Of a DNA stretch of 64,000 nucleotides, positions 21,912 to 64,000 are shown piece after piece (position 1 is the first letter of the stretch; each line of letters begins with the position of its first letter). Location: the NCBI GenBank assembly GCA_000004985.1, contig GG738877.1. The stretch is one strand, 5' to 3'. The notes under the pieces were generated by a model. That model did no database searches, was not told where the DNA came from, and was given only the letters and a program-made list of their open reading frames with translations. The DNA is from Naegleria gruberi (taxonomy: Eukaryota). The position numbers were made by a program, and so were the translations under genes.

Positions 21912-21984
21912 CGCCCACCGTGGGGGTCGAACCCACGACCACAAGGTTAAGAGCCTTGCGCTCTACCGACTGAGCTAGACGGGC
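21912..21984 (-). tRNA. tRNA-Lys (anticodon CUU)
   Basis: The minus-strand sequence is GCCCGTCTAGCTCAGTCGGTAGAGCGCAAGGCTCTTAACCTTGTGGTCGTGGGTTCGACCCCCACGGTGGGCG. It forms a cloverleaf with a 7-bp acceptor stem including two G-U pairs, a D-arm, an anticodon stem CAAGG/CCTTG with loop CTCTTAA (anticodon CTT), and a T-arm GTGGG-TTCGACC-CCCAC. It has no intron and CCA is not encoded. Confidence 0.9.
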
Positions 21985-48260: not shown

Positions 48261-50792
48261 ATGAACTCTAAACAGCAAAAGGATTTGAAATTTATTTTTA
48301 GATCACAAAAAAATAGCACACAAATGACAACAGAAGCAACAACATTACTTCCTGATTATGTTTTGAGAGCCGAGTGTAAGGGACATATTGATCAGTGTCG
48401 TACGATTTGTGCTAATCCACTTGTGGATGGAGGTATTGTCACAGGATCATTGGATTGTACAGTGAAAACATGGGCTCCTAATCCAAATTATAAGGAGGAA
48501 CAAACTAATATCGAAAATACAATGTTTGATGGTGAGGAATTGAACAATGCTAGAAAGCAAAGTGAATATCAATGCTCTTTGACAATGGTTGGACACGAAA
48601 AATTCATCACATCTATTGATTATCTTCCTGATCATTATGTAGTTTCCGGATCACACGACAAATCACTCATTGTTTGGAATGTTGTTGATGGAACTCCAGT
48701 GAAGAGTTATCCAAATGCTCATAGCAATGCAGTCAGTTGTTTATCTGTTGACAAATATACAAACACTATAATTTCAGGTTCTTGGGATAAGTAAGTACTT
48801 TTAGTTTTTAAAAAATCGATTTATTCACACTTAACAGATCTGCAAAGACATGGCATTTTGATAAGGATGCAGCCATTTCCGAATTGAAGGGACATGAACA
48901 AAACGTTTTGTGTGTTCTAGGCTTACAAAATGGTATTATTATCACTGGTAGTGGCGATGGAAGTATTAAATTCTGGGAAAATGGAAAGGAAACTCGTGAC
49001 ATTGCTGCTGCTCATTCATCATGTGTTAGATCTCTCAAAGAATTACCAGGTATTGGATTTTTATCAGCATCAAATGATGGTACTGTTAAAACCTGGACTT
49101 TACAAGGAGATTGTATTGGACATATTCAAGCACACAATACATTAGTTTATTCTGTTGAAGTAGCACCATCAGGAGAAATCTTGACAGCCAGTGAAGATAA
49201 AACTGTTAAAATTTGGAGAGGTGATTCTTTGGTACAAACCATTGAACACCCAGGATGTGTCTGGCAGGTTGTTTGTCTTCCAAATGGTGATATTGCTACA
49301 GCTTGTTCTGATTGTGTTGCCAGAGTATTTACTAAAAATCCAGAAAAGGTTGCCAATCCACTAATTATTCAAAGCTTTAATGATAATATTGCAAATTCAA
49401 AGAAAAAGAAGAGTGGAGTTGATCCAACTAAATTGACTACAGAATTAGCCTTGCAAAATACAAAGGGTACATCAGATGGTGAAATCAAACTTGTCAATAA
49501 TAGTGGTATTCCAGAAGCTTATTCTTGGAATGCTGCTCAACAAAAGTGGGATAAACTTGGTGAAATTACAGATGGACCAGGTGTAGGAGATGGATTCTCT
49601 CAAAGAACTTTCTACAATGGTAAAATGTATGATTACGTTTTCGATGTAGAACTTGAACATGGAAGTGGAATGAAGACTTTCAAACTTCCATATAATAAGG
49701 GTGATAACCCATATTTTGCTGCTCAACAATTTATTTGGGATAATAATCTTGGACAAAACTATTTGGAACAAATTGCTCGTTTCGTTATGGATAATGCTGA
49801 TGCTCATGATACTGTACCATCAGACTTTGTTGCTGGAGATCCTTATACTGGTCACCAAAGAGAAACTTTCGCTGCCAAGCGTCCAGGTACTGAATCAAAC
49901 CCAACTACTTCCTCTCCATTCTCTCAAGAACAAGATAAATATCAAAAGGAATTAGAAGAAAGAGAAAGACAAAAGAAGGTCAAACATTTCCCAGCTACCA
50001 CCAAGGTCTTTGATCAAGCCAACTATGATGGTATCCTTAAAAAGCTCAATGAATTTAATGAAAATGTAAAGACATCTGATGCATCTCTTGCTCTCTTACC
50101 AACTGAATGCACTACTTTGACACAATTATGTACAATTCTCAAGGCCGGTCAAGGTGAAAAAGTCACTTTAGCACATGTTGCTGTTGTTGAAAAAGATGCT
50201 TAACTGGCCAATTGAAAAAGTTTTCCCAGCTGTAGATTTATTCAGATTATTGATTTTAGCCAACCCAGTTGCTAATCATTACTCTGAACAATATAAGAAT
50301 GGCACCAATATTTTGATCAAATTGGTAACCTTGTGCTTTAACCCAACAACCACATACGCTGCTTTGAAGATGCTGGCTTTTAGAGCTTTAGCTAACATGT
50401 TCTATACACAACAACTTAAATTCATTATTTCCAAGCATGCCCAGATCGTCATTGACAATGCTGCTAAATCTGTTGATACGACCAATGCCAACATGAGAGC
50501 AGCCTATTCATACTTTTTGCTTAATACTGCTGTCAGTATTCACACAAACACTCAATCAGATGCATTGAAAGAGAAACTCTTGGCCTTAATCATCCAAGGT
50601 ATTCCTGATGAAACAGATCACAATATCCTGTATGACTTGTTGTGTGCTGCTGGTACAGTTTTGACAGGAGCTAGCGAATCTATAAAGGCTATTGGAAAAC
50701 AACACATTCAGACATTTGCACAAAAATCAGCCAATCCAACAGCTAGAGTAGCAGCTGCTGCTTTCCAAGTTGTTTCCCTGTTAAACCAATAA
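48261..50792 (+). CDS. PLAA: Phospholipase A2-activating protein / Doa1-Ufd3 homolog (WD40 - PFU - PUL); exon 1 48261..48790, exon 2 48838..~50172, then a +1 frame change into 50175..50792
   Basis: Seven WD repeats. The signature GSWDK|SAKTW is split by a 47-nt GTAAGT..AACAG intron. The PFU domain reads KLPYNKGDNPYFAAQQFIWDNNLGQNYLEQIARFV. The PUL/ARM domain reads MLNWPIEKVFPAVDLFRLLILANP...., in a different frame. The human alignment [24 protein letters not shown] versus EKVTLA-[H/Q]-LLLLKKMLNWPIEKVFP is gapless only if one nucleotide is removed near 50170-50176. Confidence 0.8.
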
Positions 50793-52250: not shown

Positions 52251-55200
52251 TTACAATAAATGAGTGATTACTTCCTTGCCACTTCCCTTGATGAGTAATA
52301 TTTTGGAGGAAATATTTTGAGTGAGATGTTTCAAACATAGTACATAATCCAAATTTGAAAGATTTGATGTTAATGAGGGAAGGTTTACAATGACAAGTTG
52401 TGTATCTTTTGGAGTGGAATGTTGTCGAATGATGGTATTGATTCTTGATGAGGTATTCAAATAGTCAGTAATGGTCAGGTTGGGAACATTCGAATATTGA
52501 GTACTCAATTCGTCAGTTGGGGTTGTTGGATTATTTTCAATATTAATGGAAACTTCATCTGCATTTTGTTGCGGTGTCGATGGAAAATTGAAAACCAGAG
52601 AATCTAATCCTTCATGATACGACATGGATCTCACATCTCTAAAGATGGACTTGTTAATTTTGCTTGAGGGTTTCAACATTCGTTCTCTTTCTCTTTGGTC
52701 ATGTGTCACAACGAATGGAGAAACATCGTGTGGTCTCATGTAGAGAACGTGACACTCTGCTTCAAATCTTAAATGATATAGGATATCGTGAACTCCTTCC
52801 TTAATCATTTCTAAACTAGAAGTATCATCAACAACAGTATAGATTCGTATTTTGCACTTTCTCCAAACTTTGTGTTTTTGGAGTAAGAAAGTTATGAGTA
52901 ATTCGAGTCCTCCTTCATAAATAATCCAATAGAGATCTATGAATCCACATTGTTCTTCCTCTCCAAATTCTCCCTTAGCTATAATAACAGCTTTTCTACT
53001 AATTTCTGCGTATTTTAACATTTCAACAAAGTTTCTAGCACTGATCTTGTCATCACTCATTGGGAATCCAGAAACAATTGTATTGGGAGTTAGAGGACCC
53101 AATCCACAATTCTGAATCAAATGATTGATACCCTCCTGAAAATTCTTAGCCACAATGACTTGAGAAAATCCAGTAATTGACTTCTCTTTCATTTTCAGGG
53201 AAAGGGCAAGTTGTTCCTTTCGAGCAATCTTGAACTTTTTCTTGTAATTTCCTTCAATGATGGCTGCAACTACACACAGACCTTGTCCCTTCTTGAGTTG
53301 GTTTGCAACATTGAGAATATCAGCATGTGAAATGGTATTGTTTGGAAGAATCTTTACGAGACACAAGAGTTGAGGTCTCCAATTCGACTTCTCGTGATAG
53401 GAACTGGTGGAGGAGTTAGGGTTTGTTTCACATGAATAGAGAGCATTGAGGGCAGTTTGCAATTTAACTCCACTCATAGCATCGCCAAATGCATTGGTTT
53501 CATTACTGACCTCAATAAGAATGTACAACAAGAGGCCAATGATGGCACATAACAGAGTCCAATACCATCCAATTAAAAACATGCAAATAGCACATACAAA
53601 GAATCCAAATACCCCTAACGACCAATGATAATACATCCACCTAGGCCTCCAATTAGGGCTAATACTGGCAACAAAAGTCGAAATATTGAGGAAAGCAAAT
53701 GAGAAGAGAATGAGCATGGCAATAAACGTTGAGATACTTTCCAAATTACCTAGAAAAAGGGGGATGATAGCAAGGAGAGCAGAAAATAAAGTAGCCTTCC
53801 TCATATTCACTGAACCCTTGCTTGTTAAATAGTGCAATGGAATGAATGAAATAATATTCTCGTCAACAATGGCTTGTACCACTCGAGGTGCAACCACAAG
53901 AGCTTGGATTCCTTCTCCCAATATTGCAATCAACATGCCAACTTTTACAATATAGGTTCCAATCGATAAACCAAAATCTGGAAAGGCAACCAGAGCAAAA
54001 TAAGCTGTATTCTCTCTCATCTCATCTCTCTTTCCAACAAAGCTCAACAGAATGAAAATTAGTACATACACAAAAGTGGAGGTAAGCAGTGAGGCAATAG
54101 TTCCAATAGGAATATTTCTTTGAATATGTTTAACATGCCCTGATCGATTGATTCCTGCCAAAATTCCAACTACACTTGGAAATATGACAGCCATCACTGA
54201 AAAGAAATCTTGTCCATGCTGGAATTGAGGTGGAAAATTTGCAACAAAATTATTCCACTTTGCTGATGTTATATGATATTCTGTTTTGACAGTTACAAAA
54301 CATCCAATGATAAATAACAGAATTGTAATGAATGTTGCAATAATAAAGATCAATTCAAATCTTACAACATGTCTGAAACCAATGAAAACAAGTAGGAATA
54401 TTAAAAATAGGAATCCAATGGCTAGAATAATTAAATCCCAGTAAGGATGTTGTAAATCAGAATCTATCATTTTGAAATACGGATAGTATATTCTGATGGT
54501 TGACATTAATAAATCTGCAGCTGCAAATGAGTGAAGGGACAATAGGAAAATGAAACCAACAAAATAAATCAGACCCAAACTTCCAGCAAATTGATTTCCA
54601 AGCACTCTTGACATAATGGCTATCGTTCCACCAGATTTTAACAATCCATTTGTAACTACACTTGTTAAGCTTAACCATGTTAATATAGCACAAATTACTG
54701 ATATGAAAATATACAAGAGGGAGAATGCCAATCCAGCATTTGCCAAAATCCAAGGTACTTTCAAGAAAAGAATAGTACCAAGCACTGAAGAAATGCAAGG
54801 AATATAAACTCCCTCAATTAGTCCATACTTTTTCTCTTCTTTTGGTTTGGTATTTGGTGAAATAGCAGCAGTACTGGAAGAAGGAGGAATTTGATTGGAA
54901 GGAGATGTTATCGATTCTTGTTGTAGAGAAACCACAGAACTTCTTCTCTTTTCCAGAGTTTGAGACATTCTCGAAAGTGGATCAGTGGAAATAATTTCAT
55001 TGAGGGTACTTTTAGATTTTTCATCTTGTAAAATGTTTACAATAGATGGTCTATTGTAAAACCCTTTCATTTCTTTGTCCAAATTTGAAATAGGTATAAT
55101 ATCGCTTTCCTTAAAACTTGTTTGGGAAATTGCATCCTCATCCTCTGTATGTATAGATAAATCATCACCACCAGAAATTACATTATCTAAATCCCACTTT

Positions 55201-55535
55201 TCCATCAAATCAGTTGTCTTTACACTATCAGCATCACTCAAATTCTCCGATTGTGAATAATCAGTACTAATCTGATTTGGTGGAGGAGAGGGTATTCTAA
55301 CATTTGATTCTTCATTCCATCTCAAAGATTTAGAACCAATAACAGGTTCTGCACTCGTTGCCTCGGCCTTTCTTAAAATCGATGAAGGGGAAGGCCTCAA
55401 AGTGTAACTATCCAATGTATTGTTATCAATTACATTGGTATTATTACTCTCATGAATCTGGGCAGAGTTTATCAAGTCTGGTGTGCTAATCGACCGTCTG
55501 TGTTGATGGATTGGTTGAGGTGATTGTGGCTGCAT
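52251..55535 (-). CDS. SLC12 cation-chloride cotransporter (KCC/NKCC-like)
   Basis: 1094-aa intronless ORF. It has a Ser-rich cytoplasmic N-terminus and 12 TM helices. Conserved SLC12 blocks include GTILFLKVPWILANAGLAFSLLYIFISVICAILTWLSLTSVVTNGLLKSGGTIAIMSRVLGNQFAGSLGLIYFVGFIF. The large C-terminal cytoplasmic domain is typical of CCCs. Confidence 0.85.
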   Translation of the reverse strand: MQPQSPQPIHQHRRSISTPDLINSAQIHESNNTNVIDNNTLDSYTLRPSPSSILRKAEATSAEPVIGSKSLRWNEESNVRIPSPPPNQISTDYSQSENLSDADSVKTTDLMEKWDLDNVISGGDDLSIHTEDEDAISQTSFKESDIIPISNLDKEMKGFYNRPSIVNILQDEKSKSTLNEIISTDPLSRMSQTLEKRRSSVVSLQQESITSPSNQIPPSSSTAAISPNTKPKEEKKYGLIEGVYIPCISSVLGTILFLKVPWILANAGLAFSLLYIFISVICAILTWLSLTSVVTNGLLKSGGTIAIMSRVLGNQFAGSLGLIYFVGFIFLLSLHSFAAADLLMSTIRIYYPYFKMIDSDLQHPYWDLIILAIGFLFLIFLLVFIGFRHVVRFELIFIIATFITILLFIIGCFVTVKTEYHITSAKWNNFVANFPPQFQHGQDFFSVMAVIFPSVVGILAGINRSGHVKHIQRNIPIGTIASLLTSTFVYVLIFILLSFVGKRDEMRENTAYFALVAFPDFGLSIGTYIVKVGMLIAILGEGIQALVVAPRVVQAIVDENIISFIPLHYLTSKGSVNMRKATLFSALLAIIPLFLGNLESISTFIAMLILFSFAFLNISTFVASISPNWRPRWMYYHWSLGVFGFFVCAICMFLIGWYWTLLCAIIGLLLYILIEVSNETNAFGDAMSGVKLQTALNALYSCETNPNSSTSSYHEKSNWRPQLLCLVKILPNNTISHADILNVANQLKKGQGLCVVAAIIEGNYKKKFKIARKEQLALSLKMKEKSITGFSQVIVAKNFQEGINHLIQNCGLGPLTPNTIVSGFPMSDDKISARNFVEMLKYAEISRKAVIIAKGEFGEEEQCGFIDLYWIIYEGGLELLITFLLQKHKVWRKCKIRIYTVVDDTSSLEMIKEGVHDILYHLRFEAECHVLYMRPHDVSPFVVTHDQRERERMLKPSSKINKSIFRDVRSMSYHEGLDSLVFNFPSTPQQNADEVSINIENNPTTPTDELSTQYSNVPNLTITDYLNTSSRINTIIRQHSTPKDTQLVIVNLPSLTSNLSNLDYVLCLKHLTQNISSKILLIKGSGKEVITHLL

Positions 55536-55621: not shown

Positions 55622-57627
55622 ATGCCTTCTTCCAACAATCACAAGAATGAACGACCAATTGGCCTTCATGAGTTGTTTCAAAATTTAAATAGGATTGGCA
55701 AACAAAAGGTGAAGGAAAGATTTTTTGGAAGGTTGAAAACACTTTCTATTGATCCGATTGTGTGGGATGGAAACTCTGCAAATAATATCGTAGATGAACA
55801 AATTATGATTGATTGTTCATCATCTCCAACAGGACAACAAGAAGTAATTAATAGTATTGAACCTGGAGAAAAGATTAATGACTCGACGGGAGAAATTCAG
55901 AATGCAAACTCATCATCACTTGTGGAAATATTAACTTCATCATCTGTTCATTCGGAGGAGCCTTTGGAAATTAGTAGTGTGGAAGAAGTTGAAACCATAC
56001 TTGTTCAACCTACACAAATTGAGGATGTAGGACCAATAGATCCAACAATTTTGGCCCAACACAGTCACCAATATCCTCATCAAAGCTCAACTTTTAAAGG
56101 TTTCAAGGCAAGTGAATTTCAAAAAGCGGTTCTCGACCACTGCGATAAAGTTAGAGGAATACTCAAACATAGTACTGGTTTGATAGTTTTAGCCACAGGA
56201 TTAGGTAATTATTCTCAATATTTGATTTAATCCATTGAGTAGGTAAAACTATTCTTGTTATTTTAGATATTGAACGAGAACTCACAAGGTTGAAGGATAC
56301 TAACGACTTTAAATCCTTTAAATTACTATTTCTTGTACACTCAAAGGTAATTAGAGATGGCACCTACCAAAAATTCAAAACTCAATTTTGTACGGATTTA
56401 GAAAGTGAATGGGATTTTACTGACTCTGATTTTCTAAATATCACAGAGAATGAGACACAAAAGACTATTGATTCAAAGATGAAAAGGGCAAAATTTATAT
56501 TTTGTTTATTTCAATCATTCGATAAGATTTCATCAATCAAATGTACCCATTGTGTAATTGATGAGGTACACCACGTTGTTGCCCAAACATATAATAAGGT
56601 CTTTACACAACTATCCAATTTACCATCTAATCGTTATATGCTAGGGTAAGTATGGAAATTATCCTTTTAATTAATCCAGCCATCTAGCATGACTGCAACT
56701 CTCATTCACAGAGATGATCCAACTGGTGAGAATTTGAAAAAATTATTTAAGGATATTGTCTATGTTGATTTGCCTTGGAGATTAGCTAATAATCTTGGAT
56801 TTTTCCCACCAGTCGAATATCTAGAATATTTGCCATCAACAATCAACTCGTCTTTGGACATTTTAACTTACCAACAAATATTTAAAGAAGCTTTTGATAT
56901 TTACAACAATCCAAAGAGACAACTTCCAAACTTTATTAACAAACTTGAGAAATCCCTCATTCAATTAGGAATGAACACTGACGAGCAAGTGAAGAAAAAA
57001 CTGACACCAGAAAGTGTAACCAACGTTCTCTTTCAATTCTTGCAGGAACAAGTGAATGCAGGACTTGCCGCCAAGAAAAAAATCATAATTGTACGTAATA
57101 TCTCATGTATTTCCAAACTAGAACCCTGTTAGTTCGCTAATAGTTGTGAAAATGCAGACCAAATAGAAGGTCTCATCAACAAGAAATCCAAAACATCTGT
57201 CCTTGCGTTAAAATGCTCATCTGTACATTATAAGAAAGGTACTAAACAAACTAAGCAGATACTTGAGGATTTTGAAACAGGAAAGTTGAATGTTTTAGTG
57301 AATGTAATGATGGTTAGTGAAGGTTATGACGTAAAAGACGTGGATTGTTTGGTTTTGGCAAGACAAACCGAATCTGAAATTGTTTTCTTACAACAACTAG
57401 GAAGAGCACTCAGAAGAAGTACAAACAAGACTGTAATTGTTATTGACCTAGCATTGAATCTTAGAAAAAGATGGAAACGACTCTTTAATGATGAATTCCA
57501 AAATGAAGAGGAGCTTAAAAGGATGATCACCGAGTTTTGGCAAGGTATGTATGATTCTGATGTCATCTCTAACCAATTAAATTCAGTCGAAAACTTTATT
57601 GGAAATCCAAGCTCCCTTATACAATAG
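55622..57627 (+). CDS. Superfamily-2 DEVH-box helicase, 4 exons: 55622..56204, 56243..56645, 56688..57090, 57133..57627
   Basis: Walker A is reconstituted only by splicing a 38-nt GTAATT..AGTAG intron: ...GLIVLATGLG|KTILVILDIERELTRL. Motif II is CVIDEVHHVV. The helicase C-terminal domain is VLVNVMMVSEGYDVKDVDCLVLARQTESEIVFLQQLGRALRRS. The other introns are both 42 nt (GTAAGT..TCTAG and GTACGT..GTTAG). All exon phases were verified against ORF-track anchors. Confidence 0.75.
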
Positions 57628-57843
57628 AAGAATTGACTGTTAATGGCTCGTGAATTGTAAACATCACTAATGGCACTATGTAGGTACTCATTCCGTTTCT
57701 GTGGAAGGTTACACAACGATGGCAATTTTGTCTGCGATGTATGACGTTTAGTGACAAAGTGGAACGAGTCTATGTGCAAGAATTTCGCTGCATGTAGTTA
57801 GTAAGGCAATGACATTCACAAGACTAAATACACAGAAGAAAAA

Positions 57844-60800
57844 ATGTCTCGCAATAATGTCCACAATGGATCCACTGGTTGGACTCGTCGAGTAACCAAT
57901 CATCCAATGGACCACTCTTCCTCTTCTTCATCGTATAGTAATGGATCACCTGATCAACAACAGCAACAACAAGGAACACTTCCTCCTCCCCTACCACCAA
58001 GACGAGCAACCACAATTTCAACAAGACAGCAAGGGATTGAAATATCGAACGGAAATTCATCAACAAATAATACTTTAGTTTCTCAATTTGGTAATAGAAG
58101 TGATTTTTCTAGTAACATTCTTACAAGAAACAAATACGAACCCCATTCATCAACCGAGAGTAACAACAATCAATCTGCCTTTAATAATGAGAGTTATCAA
58201 AGTTATGCAGGTGTTGATGATCTAAATAGTACTTCTTTCAATAGATTTGAAACAAATCATCCATCTAACCAAACAAATGCTCCACCTAGCATTCCACAAA
58301 GGAAACCCAAATACCATTCACCCTCTCTGCTCAACAAATCTCCTCCTCCACCAATACCTCAAAAATCTATTAACCACATCCAACATGATTCTCCTTCAAA
58401 CAGCTCACCAACCTCTCCAAAATTCCTCAATAGAAATCCTCCCCCACCAATTCCAGGATCCCTCAAAGGGATAGACACTGACATTCGTTTAAAGGATGAT
58501 GAACAAAAGGAGGAGGTATTACCCAAACGTCAAGATATTGTGTCCTCTTCCATCAACATCAACTTTTCGGGTGATAGCACTGATGAGAACCATACGAAAC
58601 CAAAGAAAAATCGACCACCATCCATTCCATCATACTCTAGAGGATTTAATTCTGGTGCTGCTAATAGTAATTATTCTTCTATTGATCAAAGTTTGACTGG
58701 TAATAGTGCTGTTACAACAACTCCACCACCTTTGCCAATCAGAAAGATTGTTAACGATAAGAAACTTCTCGACTCACCAAACAGTGTAAATAGTGTTGGA
58801 AGTAATAGTAGTAGTTGCAGCTCATCTCTCAGTGATTCGTGCAACATTCTCAGTTATTTACATTCCAAACAGGGAGGAAATTTGAATATGGATTACCTAG
58901 ATACAGGCGACGAAGGTTCTCTGATGCAAGATGTGGAGTCAGAAGGAAATGATGAGTTTAGTTTTCCAAGCAATTCATATGAGGCAGAAAACGATCTGTC
59001 ATCACCTGGAAATGGTCAATCAGCCAAACCAATCGATTTTTCAGTAGACGAGGCACTCTTCAGACGAGTCAACTCAAAAGTGAAAACACTCTCTTTAAAT
59101 GGCATTTCTCGTTCTTCTTCATTGACTAGAAAAACATCTAGAACCCTTCACTACTCTTCACAAAACAAATCACACAACACCTCCTTTGTTGAATATCAAC
59201 AACAACATAATCACTCACCAACTGCTGCTTACACCTCTTCCGATCAATTTGGAAGTAGTAGTAATTCAACCAGCACAACAATTTTACCATCCGAAAGAAT
59301 TGAACAAGCAATGGAAATTGAAACGAAAAACAAACCTTGGTCACAAACAGATAAGACCTTGTCAGCTGAGGAAGAAGAATTATTGGCAAATTCAAGAGTT
59401 TCTCAACCTCATCTTCTTCAAGCCTACAAAGTTTTTAACACACCATTCCATATTATGAAACGAGTACCTGTAAAATATATGCGAGCACCTTTCCAGCCTA
59501 CTTTTGATGAAAACGATGGAATTGACCATAGTCATAATTATTGTGATAATTCAGAATCTTCTGTTTCTTCAGCACCAAAACAATCTTCTTCCGACTCCAG
59601 TGATGATGAATCGTCAACTAATACTGAAGAAGAAAGTATTACCACACCAAGAAATAGAAAGAGTTACTTTTTGAAATTGTCAGAAATTGATAAAATTTCT
59701 CTTGGTCAAACAGAAGATTCAGACCATCACACTATTCAGCAATCTCCTAGAAATAGTGTAACACCTAGAGCATCAATAAGAAGTAAAACAATTATTGGTA
59801 TGATAGGAGGAAACACGGAAAAGAAGGCAGTTGACGGTTTTGATGAAATTCAAGTTTTGGAAGCAAAGAAAAGTCTTGTCGAATTTGCCAAATATTCTGC
59901 TGGTAAAAAGAAGACTGACATTATTGAAAATATTGAACCAAAGAATGGAACTGTAATGGTAGTTAAAAACCCAGGATTAGATGCTGTGACAGAGACCATT
60001 ACTTCAAAAACACGTTTGATGAGTTGTTTAAAACCTGATTACATGTTCAAACCTTTGGAAGCTTCAATGTGCCAAAGAGTTTCTGATTTAGCTTATCCAG
60101 TTAAAAGAAAGACCAAATTCTTCCTTCAATGTACAAGTTTAAGATTTGAAAATATTCAAATGAAAGATAGAGAATTATTATTCTCATCAGTTGCCTTATA
60201 CGATATTCAATATGGTAGAAAATTATCAGAAGACTACCATTTCCATTTATTGCCTAATCAACAATTAAGCGATCTTCCACCTCTATTCAGAGATGAACTC
60301 AAAATTTATGAAGATGCAAGAGATATTTATTCTTCAATAATAGTTTCTCCAAAAAAGTTATTCACTGTTAGTTATCCAAATGACGAGGTCTATCTCGTAG
60401 CAACAATCTATAGAATTCCTACATCATCTATCCATGAGGCTGTTAAAATGTATTCTAAAGAAAATAAGAATATTGATAAGTGGTCTGATCAATACAATCA
60501 ACTTAAGGCCAAGCTAATTAGATTCAGACAGCCATTTTTATTTGGATTTACATCTTTATTTGTTAAGGAAATGATCAATGTTAAAGGGAAACAGGTTGAA
60601 TCTTTCAAATTGGAAGGTTCAAGATATGACATCAAACCATTCTATGAAGTTGATGGCGATTTTAAAAATCCAGTAGATTTTGTGACAATTATTAGAAACT
60701 CAATCAAGGATAAGAAAATTAAGAATAATCAAGTTCAAGGATCTATGCTGTTCACTGCTGAACTTCTTTCAAATTCTAGTTCTCAAAGTAATTATGAAAT

Positions 60801-63800
60801 TCAGCAAAAAATCCAAAATTCTAAATCAAGATTCTTAACAAGTCAAGGATCGAGATCTGATTTGGATTCCTCATTTGGGTCCCCAAGCTCAAGCTCTATT
60901 CTCGGATCAAGTACAGCATTCAGCTCACCAAGATCTGTTAATGAAAGTATAATATCTAGTTATGAGCATGATGGAACTGAGAGCCTTGTAAATCAAGAAC
61001 AACTCAATCAAGTTCAAGAATTTCCACTCCTCTCCTCTAACTATCCTAATCTATCCATGCAAAATACTTTGTTTATTTATCCTCAAAGTTTTATTATTGA
61101 AGGTGCATCCTCAGCAAAGAACATTTTTGCTGAAGTTTATTTTAGAGAAACAGACACAGCTCCTCCTAAAGTTGAAGATATTGATGGAAAAGCTGAAAAA
61201 AGATTTATTGCTTGGTTAAAGAAGGAGAGAACAACTTCTTTAATAACTTCCCTTTCGGTCGATTCGAGACAGCAAATATTATTGGATGAATTTAGATTGG
61301 AACTTCCAATGTATCCTATGGAAAAGCACCATTTATTATTTGTCTTTTACCATGTTGATATTGACAATAAGCATTCAAAGAAATTGGAATATGCAAATAG
61401 TTCCTTCGATTCAAGAAAAGAATTCTTTTCAACATCTGATAGAGCTATTATTGGATATGCTTTCCTCCCACTCACTAAGAGTATTCAACCAGATGAATGT
61501 GAGTACACTTTGAAACACAACCTTATCTACTTGCCTGATTGTAATGATGATATTACAATCTACAAGAAGGACTCTTTTAAGAGTAATTATTTGTCTGAGA
61601 ATAGTCTCAAACCTCTAAAGAGTTCAAAAATCAAAGTTAAAACCAATTTAGTATCGACTATACACCCTAGAGATCCAACTCTTGCATTATTTTATGCTTC
61701 TCTGACTGATCTCTACACAGCCGCTCCTGGTAAAACAATTGAAATATTGGATTTCTTGGAAGGTTTTGTTCTTCAAAAGTTTAACGAAATTGAATTCTCA
61801 GAGTTGTTACCTCACTTCCCAATTTTAATGAACCTACTTTTTGAATTGATGTGCAGAGTTTCTGAACTTACAACTGATGAACAACAAATTGAAAGCTTGG
61901 AAAGCTCTGTCTTTGAATCATTACTTGTTTGCCTAAGAGGATCCTACCACTTTACCAAACATCACACAAGAAGTAACAAGTATTTTACTAGTTATGTTAA
62001 ATTCATGTTTGAAAACATCAAGGGTAATCCACTTTTCTTGAATTTACCAAGAATAATAACAAGATTTATTTATGTTCCAGAAGGCAAGGAACTTGAGCCA
62101 GCAGAAGAAGGCAAATATATTAAGGAAATGAACAGGCTCAGTAAAAAGTATGGCAAGTCAGTCATAAAGAAAACTACCAGTTTGGAAAAGGATAAAAAGG
62201 AATACGAAAAGAAAAAGAATGAAGTATCTCCTCATGATCCTATCAGATTTTCTTGGTTCCTTTTCGATATTACTATCAAGAGTATAATTCTTTCAGGAGT
62301 GCCTAGCTCAGAAGATCACCACACTATGGATTACTTTACAGAAGTACCTGAAGACCTATTCTTCATATCATTGAAACAATTAATTGACAACTTTAATACA
62401 TGTGTCAACAAGTTAATGTTGAGTGATGGTACTGGAAGAAATAACATTGGGTTGAATGGTAATAGAAACTTGGCATTGTTCATTAGAGATTTGATCCCTA
62501 TTCTCAAAAGAGAACATGTGCTCAAACTGGTAAAGAAATACTTTAAATTCTTTAATGGATCGGATGAGAAACAACTTCGTTTGAAGAGTGAATTCATTAC
62601 TATCCTCAGTGACTATGAGCATTGGATTCCTATCAACAATTTATCATTGGAAGGAGGAAACTTTGGTGTCAAACATTTCAGCACGTTATTCTATCAAATT
62701 GTGGACAGTAAGAAGGATAGATTAATTAAGAAGATGACAAAGGTCTTACTCAACCACCTTTGTAAACTTGATTTTGACTCTAGATATGTTCATGAAAACT
62801 CAAAAGCCAATGTTTGTGAAATTTATCTCATCTTTGTTGATTTGTTCTTTGAAAAAGATGAGTACCTCACAATTTTCCAAGATGATGAGCTGTTTGTTGT
62901 ATTTTCATGCATTTTGTTGTGGATAATGAGAGGCTTATCAAAGCAAAGGTTAATTTCTTGGTTCAAGGTTCTACCATTCTTCAAGATTTTGAATATTTTG
63001 AACTTTTTGGACTATGTAACTATTGCTATTAACAATCTCGATTATGATCCAAAATCTAGAGTTGAAGATGATAGATCTCTTCGTACCGAAGTTTCCCTTG
63101 TTATTAATTACTTGATTTCTGTAATTGTATCAAATGTCACCTCAGACGGAGGATTTATTGATGAGCTGCAAATGCAAAGCGACAATATTGATCTTCTCTC
63201 TAATATCCAACTTGCTGATCCAAGTTTACTGAGACAAAGACAACTTGTATCCTACTATGAGGCAAAAAGCTTAAAGCAACAAGCTCCTCTTATTGGTCTA
63301 TTCTTTAGACAGATTTGTAGAGTTTTGATGAACAGTGTTCTTCAATTAACCTTGAGAAAGGAATTAGACTTGGTATATATTGTATTTAGAGAATCACTTT
63401 TACCTCTTATCAAAGAATGTACCAGTAAACTTGTGGTAAATGAGCTCTATGATCCAAACATTCCAAAGAAACAGAGAATTCCTATTGCTGAAAAGAGACA
63501 AGTCGAACAAAAGTGGAGATGGTTATTGGGTGCTGTTATGCTTCACTCAGGATTTACATCTGAAGAAGAGCAAAATGCTTATCCAATTGTCAAAGAATGT
63601 CAAAAACTTTTATTAGAACCTTTCAATAATGAACTGTTCAATGTGCAATTAGATAGTACCGATATTGAGGATGGTGATTTGCTATTGAACAATGAAGAGC
63701 ACAATATCAAAGCAGGTACATTCAAAAAACTTGTCGAAAGATTGCTTGACGTGGATACAAATCAAATTGACAAGGAGAGTCACAAGTATGGAGAAATCTT

Positions 63801-64000
63801 CCTCCTCACTTGCGCCTCTTTCACTCAACCAATTAATTTACTCACCCAACTTATTGAAATATTTAAAACAGCCGAAGAAACAGTCATCAAGCTCAGAGTT
63901 GAACAATTTATCAGCAAGTGGGTTAGATTCGGATTCCATGATTTTGACAATAATGTTATTGCCAAGCTTGTTACATTCCTTTCCAATATTTCTGGAGTTA
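57844..64000 (+). CDS. Partial CDS (continues beyond window end): >2050-aa protein with Pro-rich N-terminus, DOCK-type DHR-1 (C2) domain and a downstream RasGEF-N (REM)-like motif
   Basis: By manual translation the frame is open from ATG ~57844 to 64000 with no stop. It is absent from the ORF track because there is no in-window stop. The N-terminal 500 aa are S/N/P-rich with PxxP motifs (PPPLPPRR, PPPPIPQK, PPPPIPGS, PPPLPIRK). DHR-1 runs from about 60120 to about 61500: NTLFIYPQSFIIEGASSAKNIFAEVYFRETDT...DEFRLELPMYPMEKHHLLFVFYHVDID...IGYAFLPL. Compare DOCK180 NDLYVYP...ARNIAV.VEFRDSD...DEIKIELP..LHEKHHLLFTFYHVSC...VGYAWLPL. Near 63690-63960 it reads AGTFKKLVERLLDVDTNQIDKESHKYGEIFLLTCASFTQPINLLTQLIEIF...KLRVEQFISKWVRFGFHDFDNN. 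This resembles the RasGEF N-terminal domain (GTLxKLIERLT...FLLTYRSF..P.ELL..L). Confidence 0.65.
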   Translation, partial: MSRNNVHNGSTGWTRRVTNHPMDHSSSSSSYSNGSPDQQQQQQGTLPPPLPPRRATTISTRQQGIEISNGNSSTNNTLVSQFGNRSDFSSNILTRNKYEPHSSTESNNNQSAFNNESYQSYAGVDDLNSTSFNRFETNHPSNQTNAPPSIPQRKPKYHSPSLLNKSPPPPIPQKSINHIQHDSPSNSSPTSPKFLNRNPPPPIPGSLKGIDTDIRLKDDEQKEEVLPKRQDIVSSSININFSGDSTDENHTKPKKNRPPSIPSYSRGFNSGAANSNYSSIDQSLTGNSAVTTTPPPLPIRKIVNDKKLLDSPNSVNSVGSNSSSCSSSLSDSCNILSYLHSKQGGNLNMDYLDTGDEGSLMQDVESEGNDEFSFPSNSYEAENDLSSPGNGQSAKPIDFSVDEALFRRVNSKVKTLSLNGISRSSSLTRKTSRTLHYSSQNKSHNTSFVEYQQQHNHSPTAAYTSSDQFGSSSNSTSTTILPSERIEQAMEIETKNKPWSQTDKTLSAEEEELLANSRVSQPHLLQAYKVFNTPFHIMKRVPVKYMRAPFQPTFDENDGIDHSHNYCDNSESSVSSAPKQSSSDSSDDESSTNTEEESITTPRNRKSYFLKLSEIDKISLGQTEDSDHHTIQQSPRNSVTPRASIRSKTIIGMIGGNTEKKAVDGFDEIQVLEAKKSLVEFAKYSAGKKKTDIIENIEPKNGTVMVVKNPGLDAVTETITSKTRLMSCLKPDYMFKPLEASMCQRVSDLAYPVKRKTKFFLQCTSLRFENIQMKDRELLFSSVALYDIQYGRKLSEDYHFHLLPNQQLSDLPPLFRDELKIYEDARDIYSSIIVSPKKLFTVSYPNDEVYLVATIYRIPTSSIHEAVKMYSKENKNIDKWSDQYNQLKAKLIRFRQPFLFGFTSLFVKEMINVKGKQVESFKLEGSRYDIKPFYEVDGDFKNPVDFVTIIRNSIKDKKIKNNQVQGSMLFTAELLSNSSSQSNYEIQQKIQNSKSRFLTSQGSRSDLDSSFGSPSSSSILGSSTAFSSPRSVNESIISSYEHDGTESLVNQEQLNQVQEFPLLSSNYPNLSMQNTLFIYPQSFIIEGASSAKNIFAEVYFRETDTAPPKVEDIDGKAEKRFIAWLKKERTTSLITSLSVDSRQQILLDEFRLELPMYPMEKHHLLFVFYHVDIDNKHSKKLEYANSSFDSRKEFFSTSDRAIIGYAFLPLTKSIQPDECEYTLKHNLIYLPDCNDDITIYKKDSFKSNYLSENSLKPLKSSKIKVKTNLVSTIHPRDPTLALFYASLTDLYTAAPGKTIEILDFLEGFVLQKFNEIEFSELLPHFPILMNLLFELMCRVSELTTDEQQIESLESSVFESLLVCLRGSYHFTKHHTRSNKYFTSYVKFMFENIKGNPLFLNLPRIITRFIYVPEGKELEPAEEGKYIKEMNRLSKKYGKSVIKKTTSLEKDKKEYEKKKNEVSPHDPIRFSWFLFDITIKSIILSGVPSSEDHHTMDYFTEVPEDLFFISLKQLIDNFNTCVNKLMLSDGTGRNNIGLNGNRNLALFIRDLIPILKREHVLKLVKKYFKFFNGSDEKQLRLKSEFITILSDYEHWIPINNLSLEGGNFGVKHFSTLFYQIVDSKKDRLIKKMTKVLLNHLCKLDFDSRYVHENSKANVCEIYLIFVDLFFEKDEYLTIFQDDELFVVFSCILLWIMRGLSKQRLISWFKVLPFFKILNILNFLDYVTIAINNLDYDPKSRVEDDRSLRTEVSLVINYLISVIVSNVTSDGGFIDELQMQSDNIDLLSNIQLADPSLLRQRQLVSYYEAKSLKQQAPLIGLFFRQICRVLMNSVLQLTLRKELDLVYIVFRESLLPLIKECTSKLVVNELYDPNIPKKQRIPIAEKRQVEQKWRWLLGAVMLHSGFTSEEEQNAYPIVKECQKLLLEPFNNELFNVQLDSTDIEDGDLLLNNEEHNIKAGTFKKLVERLLDVDTNQIDKESHKYGEIFLLTCASFTQPINLLTQLIEIFKTAEETVIKLRVEQFISKWVRFGFHDFDNNVIAKLVTFLSNISGV

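Follow-up and report, generated by a model that had tools for sequence, protein, structure and literature searches.

A DOCK-type body coupled to a SOS-like REM-CDC25 module in a predicted Ras-family exchange factor of Naegleria gruberi and its relatives

The end of a 64,000-nucleotide stretch of Naegleria gruberi DNA (contig GG738877.1 of assembly GCA_000004985.1; referred to below, at its full length, as the window) is occupied by a giant open reading frame (ORF) at 57844..64000 on the + strand. We identified this ORF as the larger part of the gene for XP_002675540.1, a protein in which a DOCK body is followed by a SOS-type REM-CDC25 module at the place where DOCK proteins carry their DHR-2 domain. 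In our assessment, this intron-less gene, whose layout is that of a whole protein family, probably encodes a lipid-targeted guanine nucleotide exchange factor (GEF) acting on Ras-family GTPases. The original prediction, made from the letters of the window, had seen a DHR-1 domain and a REM-like segment in one frame, had expected DHR-2 beyond the window and had proposed a novel dual Rho/Ras-GEF.

A stop check of the + frames confirmed that the frame is uninterrupted over 57844..64000. The final stop codon in this + frame was found at 57802, and the following 2065 codons, at 57805-64000, are open until the frame runs off the window end. In 57000-64000, stops number 281 in one of the remaining + frames and 111 in the other. 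At the composition of the window (34% G+C, stop-codon probability 0.073), the chance probability of so long an open run is ~1e-68. Translation from the first in-frame ATG, at 57844, to the window end yields 2052 residues. An exhaustive HMMER search with residues 1051-2052 of this translation as query returned Naegleria gruberi NEG-M XP_002675540.1 (EFC42796.1; UniProt D2VK39; 2358 aa; automatic public name 'rasGEF domain-containing protein') at 100% identity, and tblastn placed residues 1-2031 of that protein at 57907-63999 in one piece, again with 100% identity. As this match is unbroken, the gene has a single exon inside the window. We conclude that XP_002675540.1 is the product of a real single-exon N. 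gruberi gene, of which the window carries the first 2031 codons, with the final 327 residues lying past the window end. In the public gene model, translation begins at the following in-frame ATG, at 57907, 21 codons downstream of 57844, and the choice between the two starts is ambiguous.

In the 2052-residue ORF, Pfam revealed DOCK-C2 (PF14429; 90.4 bits, cut-off 33.6) at aa 1071-1278 and RasGEF_N (PF00618; 42.4 bits, cut-off 28.3) at aa 1954-2045, the latter reaching 45.9 bits when the C-terminal 200 aa were scanned alone. Both domains had been named in the original prediction, and its spacing of ~800 aa between them proved correct; all seven motifs that it had quoted were present, those of DHR-1 at nt 61063-61473 and those of REM at nt 63727-63948. 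In full XP_002675540.1, DOCK-C2 (residues 1050-1257) and RasGEF_N (1933-2024) are followed by RasGEF, the CDC25 homology domain, at 2110-2297 with 172.5 bits; no Pfam family besides these three was found in the full protein, which ends 61 residues past the CDC25 domain.

Judged from sequence, the order of the protein is a probably disordered N-terminus with proline motifs (57907..59826), a conserved pre-C2 region of DOCK type (59839..60780), DHR-1 (DOCK-type C2; 61054..61677), a DOCK-type helical (ARM/TPR) region (61678..63618) and a SOS-type REM domain (63703..63978) plus CDC25, all on the + strand; the CDC25 domain would be encoded at ~64234-64797 if colinear, outside the window. The REM-CDC25 module occupies the exact place that DHR-2 has in canonical DOCKs.

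The extent of the DOCK homology was delimited by hhalign using locally built profiles, one of 19 proteins with the C2+REM+CDC25 layout and the other of 59 canonical DOCKs from the same search. The family profile matched canonical DOCK over XP_002675540.1 ~1036-1904 against DOCK11 286-1188 (probability 100%, E 2.8e-84), from just before C2 through the whole helical region. The match ended ~30 residues before REM and, on the DOCK side, ~90 residues before DHR-2 lobe A as placed by Pfam in DOCK11. Only the alignments ranked 2 and 3 touched the REM-CDC25 part, with a probability of 0.1%.

Upstream of DHR-1, 370 residues were likewise found to be DOCK-homologous against canonical DOCK N-terminal profiles (hhalign probability 100%, E 6e-43), and the motif ALYDxxxxxK(I/L)SEDxHF lies within this pre-C2 homology. 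A motif of the conserved pre-DHR-1 region is ALYDIQYGRKLSEDYHFHL at 60193-60249, and tblastn aligned the region with the upstream ORF of the N. lovaniensis counterpart at 34% identity (E 2e-52). In the ARM region, FSWFLFDITIKSI (62248-62286) corresponds to DOCK WFFFEL(I/V)KSM, NRNLALFIRDL (62461-62493) is a DOCK signature motif and KLDFDSRY (62764-62787) corresponds to DOCK KHDxDxRYQ; KWRWLLG (63511-63531), a family-specific motif, closes the region at the ARM-REM junction. Scanned in isolation, the pre-C2 region, the ARM region and pieces of the N-terminus matched no Pfam family even at E up to 10, so that the DOCK homology of the pre-C2 and ARM regions is detectable only by profiles and fold match. 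For the homolog in N. lovaniensis, PF28208 (TPR_DOCK9) is among the precomputed annotations.

For the fold match, window aa 1051-2052 were modelled with AlphaFold2 from a 16-row family alignment; in the model, a long helical solenoid comes after a beta-sandwich, and the ARM region is all-helical (mean predicted local distance difference test score, pLDDT, 79.9; predicted template modelling score 0.71). Foldseek against the PDB returned three DOCK5 chains at the top (E 1e-11 to 1e-9, ~1040-1090 columns), followed by the DHR-1 domains of DOCK180 (3l4c; template modelling, TM, score 0.71) and DOCK8 (7clx; TM 0.64), ahead of generic HEAT/ARM proteins. An AlphaFold model of the N. lovaniensis ARM-REM-CDC25 segment from a two-row alignment had a pLDDT of 46 and was discarded.

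When the family profile was compared with PDB sequences, DOCK6 537-1409 was the best full-length match among the DOCKs (E 5e-91), and the DHR-1 domain of DOCK8 (E 1.6e-37) scored far above that of DOCK1 (2.6e-7). The closest canonical relatives by distance were DOCK9-like proteins of Balamuthia and other protists and amoebae. The stronger matches to DOCK6 and DOCK8 than to DOCK1, together with these DOCK9-like nearest relatives, imply an affinity with the DOCK-C/D (zizimin-type) branch.

Turning to the C-terminal module, the family profile matched REM and CDC25 of SOS1/SOS2 in the PDB sequences as one block with E ~1e-96. RasGRF1, yeast Cdc25 and RalGPS1 came next, the E values for SOS, RasGRF, Cdc25 and RalGPS ranging from 1e-63 to 1e-96; Epac2 and the RasGRPs were far weaker, and BCAR3/SH2D3C were weak matches (E ~1e-6 to 1e-3). 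In pairwise alignment, the catalytic hairpin IYFTDLVFIEDGN aligned with SOS2 IYLTNILKTEEGN, and the EIARQLT block was conserved; the family consensus of the hairpin is YLTDLTFIEDGN. REM, the CDC25 domain and the helical-hairpin motif (SOS1 929-944 region), by which the CDC25 family is recognised, were thus all found.

These matches bear on the alternative, raised together with the original prediction, that the REM-like stretch belongs to the DOCK helical region, its likeness to REM then being accidental. In favour of this, conservation among REM domains is weak, they are short and made of helices, and the stretch comes directly after a long helical solenoid; against it, RasGEF_N scored over the Pfam gathering threshold, RasGEF reached 172 bits in the full protein, and the SOS1 match is unbroken over REM and CDC25, with the DOCK homology ending before REM is reached. 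The N. lovaniensis homolog is colinear through REM and then shows Pfam RasGEF at 1155-1315. We therefore give virtually no weight to a chance resemblance, and the assignment of the stretch to the DOCK helical region was dropped in favour of a genuine REM domain.

No DHR-2 lobe (PF06920, PF20422, PF20421) was found by Pfam in full XP_002675540.1 or in the 19 family members. Iterated hidden Markov models (HMMs) of the three DOCK11 lobes, A, B and C, matched 62-68 of the collected DOCK-like sequences and none of the REM-CDC25 proteins, and no protein combining CDC25 with DHR-2 was found with the iterated local HMMs among the sequences collected by homolog searches. A protein with a DOCK DHR-2 further downstream, besides the Ras-GEF module, would be a dual GEF, for which it speaks that DHR-1 and the DOCK ARM region are genuine and that DHR-2 follows them in all known DOCKs (PMC5499878, PMC3620097). 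The full protein, however, stops 61 residues past CDC25, DHR-2 is absent by Pfam, by the DOCK11-lobe HMMs and from the 19 members, and the hhalign alignments ranked 2 and 3, the sole ones over the C-terminal part, reach a probability of 0.1%; the likelihood of a dual GEF is, in our view, close to nil.

The expectation of DHR-2 beyond the window was accordingly not borne out, since CDC25 stands there instead. A canonical DHR-2 without CDC25 had been named in advance as a finding that would contradict the predicted architecture, and the full protein revealed the opposite, CDC25 without DHR-2. Of the proposed dual Rho/Ras-GEF, the REM/CDC25 half holds and the DHR-2 half does not. Based on these comparisons, XP_002675540.1 is not a dual GEF and is read as a DOCK body with the Rho-GEF domain replaced by a SOS-like REM-CDC25. 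DHR-1 and the ARM/TPR region of the DOCK family were found, but DHR-2, by which the family is defined, was not; because this defining domain is missing and the CDC25-family domains and motif are present, the predicted protein should best be classed as a RasGEF with a DOCK-derived body.

SOS and RasGRF carry DH-PH together with REM-CDC25, so that a combination of Rho-GEF and Ras-GEF is not new in principle. These proteins are dual Rho/Ras GEFs via DH-PH, whereas only the Ras-type module was found in XP_002675540.1.

The layout recurs. Using iterated local HMMs on the collected sequences, C2+REM+CDC25 was found in the 19 near-full-length proteins plus a few fragments, and C2 with DHR-2 lobes A, B and C in the 59 canonical proteins. 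By Pfam, RasGEF and RasGEF_N were detected in 19/19 of the members, DOCK-C2 in 17/19 and DHR-2 in 0/19. The family was recovered by an exhaustive representative search; a word-indexed search with a window segment gave two proteins only, and a word-indexed profile search with the ARM-REM junction returned ordinary RasGEFs alone.

All named members are from Discoba. N. gruberi has three paralogs (D2VK39, D2VVW0, D2V9U1), N. lovaniensis contributes three proteins and Willaertia magna two, and N. fowleri, Acrasis kona and Percolomonas are represented as well. The jakobid Andalucia godoyi also has a member, and automatic naming has given one Andalucia member the label 'Ras guanine nucleotide exchange factor J', which is taken from a Dictyostelium protein. 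In a member from an environmental assembly (P0144, 2896 aa), ARM and REM are separated by an inserted protein kinase domain.

The N. lovaniensis counterpart (PYSW02000012.1, L001 6594-14196) is annotated as two adjacent same-strand genes, one of 1127 aa and one of 1372 aa, with 24 bp between them and with the frame changing near L001 9865-9975, in a Ser-rich stretch upstream of DHR-1, by what appears to be a one-base change. The break is probably a frameshift, an assembly error or an annotation split, since the window keeps a single open frame over the equivalent point.

A further explanation is that a truncated DOCK and an ordinary neighbouring RasGEF were merged by misassembly or read-through annotation. 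This would agree with the two-gene annotation and frame change in N. lovaniensis and with the CDC25 part being known from the public gene model, outside the window DNA. The N. lovaniensis split, however, lies upstream of DHR-1 and not between the DOCK part and REM; in the window, 6.2 kb run without a stop and the KWRWLLG family motif stands at the junction. C2-ARM-REM-CDC25 is, moreover, colinear in 19 proteins, among which the named members represent six or more genera and stem from independent assemblies and transcriptomes. A merge is consequently highly improbable.

To place the family among the DOCKs, a neighbour-joining tree was calculated from 756 columns of the DOCK-homologous part, where one split (bootstrap 146/200) set the family apart from all canonical DOCKs. 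Most likely, as read from these sequence comparisons, the family arose once from a DOCK-C/D-like (zizimin-type) ancestor whose catalytic module was replaced. If the Andalucia protein is orthologous, the swap would predate the heterolobosean-jakobid divergence.

Regarding lipid targeting, the PI(4,5)P2 pocket of DOCK8 is formed by R570, K576 and R581, with K576A or R581A abolishing binding (PMC7893821). Alignment of the L1 loop revealed the counterpart of R581 to be Lys1071 in XP_002675540.1 numbering (AAG codon of SSAKNIF, nt 61117-61119), and this position is K or R in 14/19 of the aligned family members. Of the three pocket positions, this one alone has a clear basic counterpart, and phosphoinositide binding by the DHR-1 domain may be regarded as plausible. 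The DHR-1 and ARM body would bring the protein to a phosphoinositide-containing membrane, where REM-CDC25 would catalyse the release of GDP from a GTPase of the Ras subfamily (Ras or Rap type) and not from Rac/Cdc42. Exchange on Rac/Cdc42 is unlikely because there is no DHR-2.

It is known from SOS-Ras structures that the helical hairpin opens the nucleotide site, and the conservation of this hairpin favours an active GEF. The architecture might nevertheless be real and the CDC25 domain be a pseudo-GEF, a binding module or specific for another GTPase class, with the protein serving mainly as a scaffold. Non-catalytic CDC25-like domains do exist, BCAR3 and SH2D3C being weak matches to the family profile, and yeast Lte1 is a non-catalytic example (PMC2172978). 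The domain scores 172 bits to Pfam RasGEF, though, and is much nearer to SOS, RasGRF, Cdc25 and RalGPS than to BCAR3/SH2D3C, and family members keep the hairpin motif as well as the EIARQLT block. We regard a catalytically silent or differently directed module as unlikely, but as the most serious competitor among the alternatives considered here.

Several observations weigh against an intron-less, family-wide DOCK/REM-CDC25 gene for a lipid-targeted Ras-family GEF, and they were taken into account in calling it probable. The CDC25 domain lies past the window end and is known here from the public gene model alone, as are the last 327 codons as a whole, and the N. lovaniensis counterpart is split over two frames. 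The lipid pocket is conserved in part only: Ser stands at the R570 position, a feature shared with DOCK6/7, and K576, whose position lies beside a gap of one residue, has no clear basic equivalent. The allosteric-site residue of SOS, which we take to be W729 in SOS1 numbering, aligns with Ile in XP_002675540.1, so that allosteric feedback of the SOS kind is doubtful and may not hold here. A single origin has moderate support (73% bootstrap, with saturated distances), and members other than the named ones come from environmental or read-archive assemblies, which makes the taxonomic range uncertain.

The N-terminal ~640 aa (57907..59826), to which no Pfam family matched, are probably disordered, with S+N+P+Q+T accounting for 41-61% of every 100-aa block. 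Six SH3-ligand-like PPxxPxx[R/K] motifs were found in this low-complexity region at nt 57982-58746. The counterpart in N. lovaniensis has none, and adaptor binding by these motifs may be specific to the species. DOCK-A/B carry an N-terminal SH3 domain and DOCK-D a PH domain; Pfam scans matched neither of the two, with E up to 1 for the 2052-aa ORF and up to 10 for N-terminal pieces.

Compared with known systems, XP_002675540.1 has the pre-DHR-1 region, DHR-1 and the complete ARM region, signature motifs included, in common with DOCK-C/D proteins (human DOCK6/7/8, DOCK9-11), but differs from them by its long, probably disordered N-terminus and by having REM-CDC25 where they have DHR-2, the DOCK catalytic and dimerisation domain. 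As in SOS1/SOS2 and RasGRF1, REM and CDC25 are contiguous, match end to end and keep the hairpin and the EIARQLT block; unlike in SOS, a DOCK body replaces the histone fold, DH-PH and the proline-rich tail. The protein also resembles the multidomain RasGEFs of amoebae, such as the Dictyostelium Gef family, in being a large RasGEF of an amoeboid protist, a group in which the N-terminal accessory domains vary, and no report of a Dictyostelium RasGEF with a DOCK-C2/ARM body was found in the literature searched.

DOCK proteins are defined by a fixed core of DHR-1 and DHR-2, alone or with SH3 or PH, and Naegleria is described as having both Dock and Zizimin genes, with no mention of a RasGEF hybrid (PMC5499878, PMC3620097). 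Full-text literature searches returned no description of a DOCK-C2 + RasGEF architecture. The sequences are already public in GenBank and UniProt, auto-labelled 'rasGEF domain-containing protein' or 'C2 DOCK-type domain-containing protein'; new is not the sequence itself but that the architecture is recognised and delimited, the entire DOCK body is found to be retained and the spread of the layout is traced.

With ~1,200 residues of DOCK body kept and the Rho-GEF swapped for a Ras-GEF, the DOCK scaffold appears modular, and its lipid-targeting and regulatory parts can, on this reading, serve another GTPase class. As a natural experiment, the family allows the roles of DHR-1 and ARM to be considered independently of DHR-2. 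In Naegleria, its members are candidates for activating Ras in motility and phagocytosis, and the pathogen N. fowleri has a member. More tentatively, and as an idea that we hold to be possible rather than probable, the DOCK body may be an autonomous, transferable membrane-targeting and regulatory chassis that was re-coupled from a Rho-GEF to a SOS-type Ras-GEF in an early discoban ancestor, giving rise to a group of undescribed phosphoinositide-steered Ras activators which later multiplied in the amoeboid heteroloboseans. If true, membrane lipid signals would switch Ras on directly in crawling or phagocytosis.

Elsewhere the window holds ordinary genes, among them importin-beta-like, SLC12, kinase, Na/sulfate symporter and PLAA/Doa1-like ones, in eukaryotic DNA poor in introns, in keeping with Naegleria. 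No tandem repeats were found in 56000-64000. The immediate upstream neighbour of the XP_002675540.1 gene encodes a SLC12-type cation-chloride cotransporter of 1094 aa (52251-55535, - strand), and the sole tRNA found in the window is tRNA-Lys(CTT) at 21912-21984 (- strand). A 503-aa ORF at 24644-26155 (+) showed a weak MACPF/perforin match that was barely over the cut-off (E 6e-5, 23.7 bits). The PLAA/Doa1-like gene at 48884-50792 (+), with WD40, PFU and the start of PUL, consists of the overlapping ORFs 48884-50203 and 50175-50792, the overlap suggesting a short intron or a frame change.

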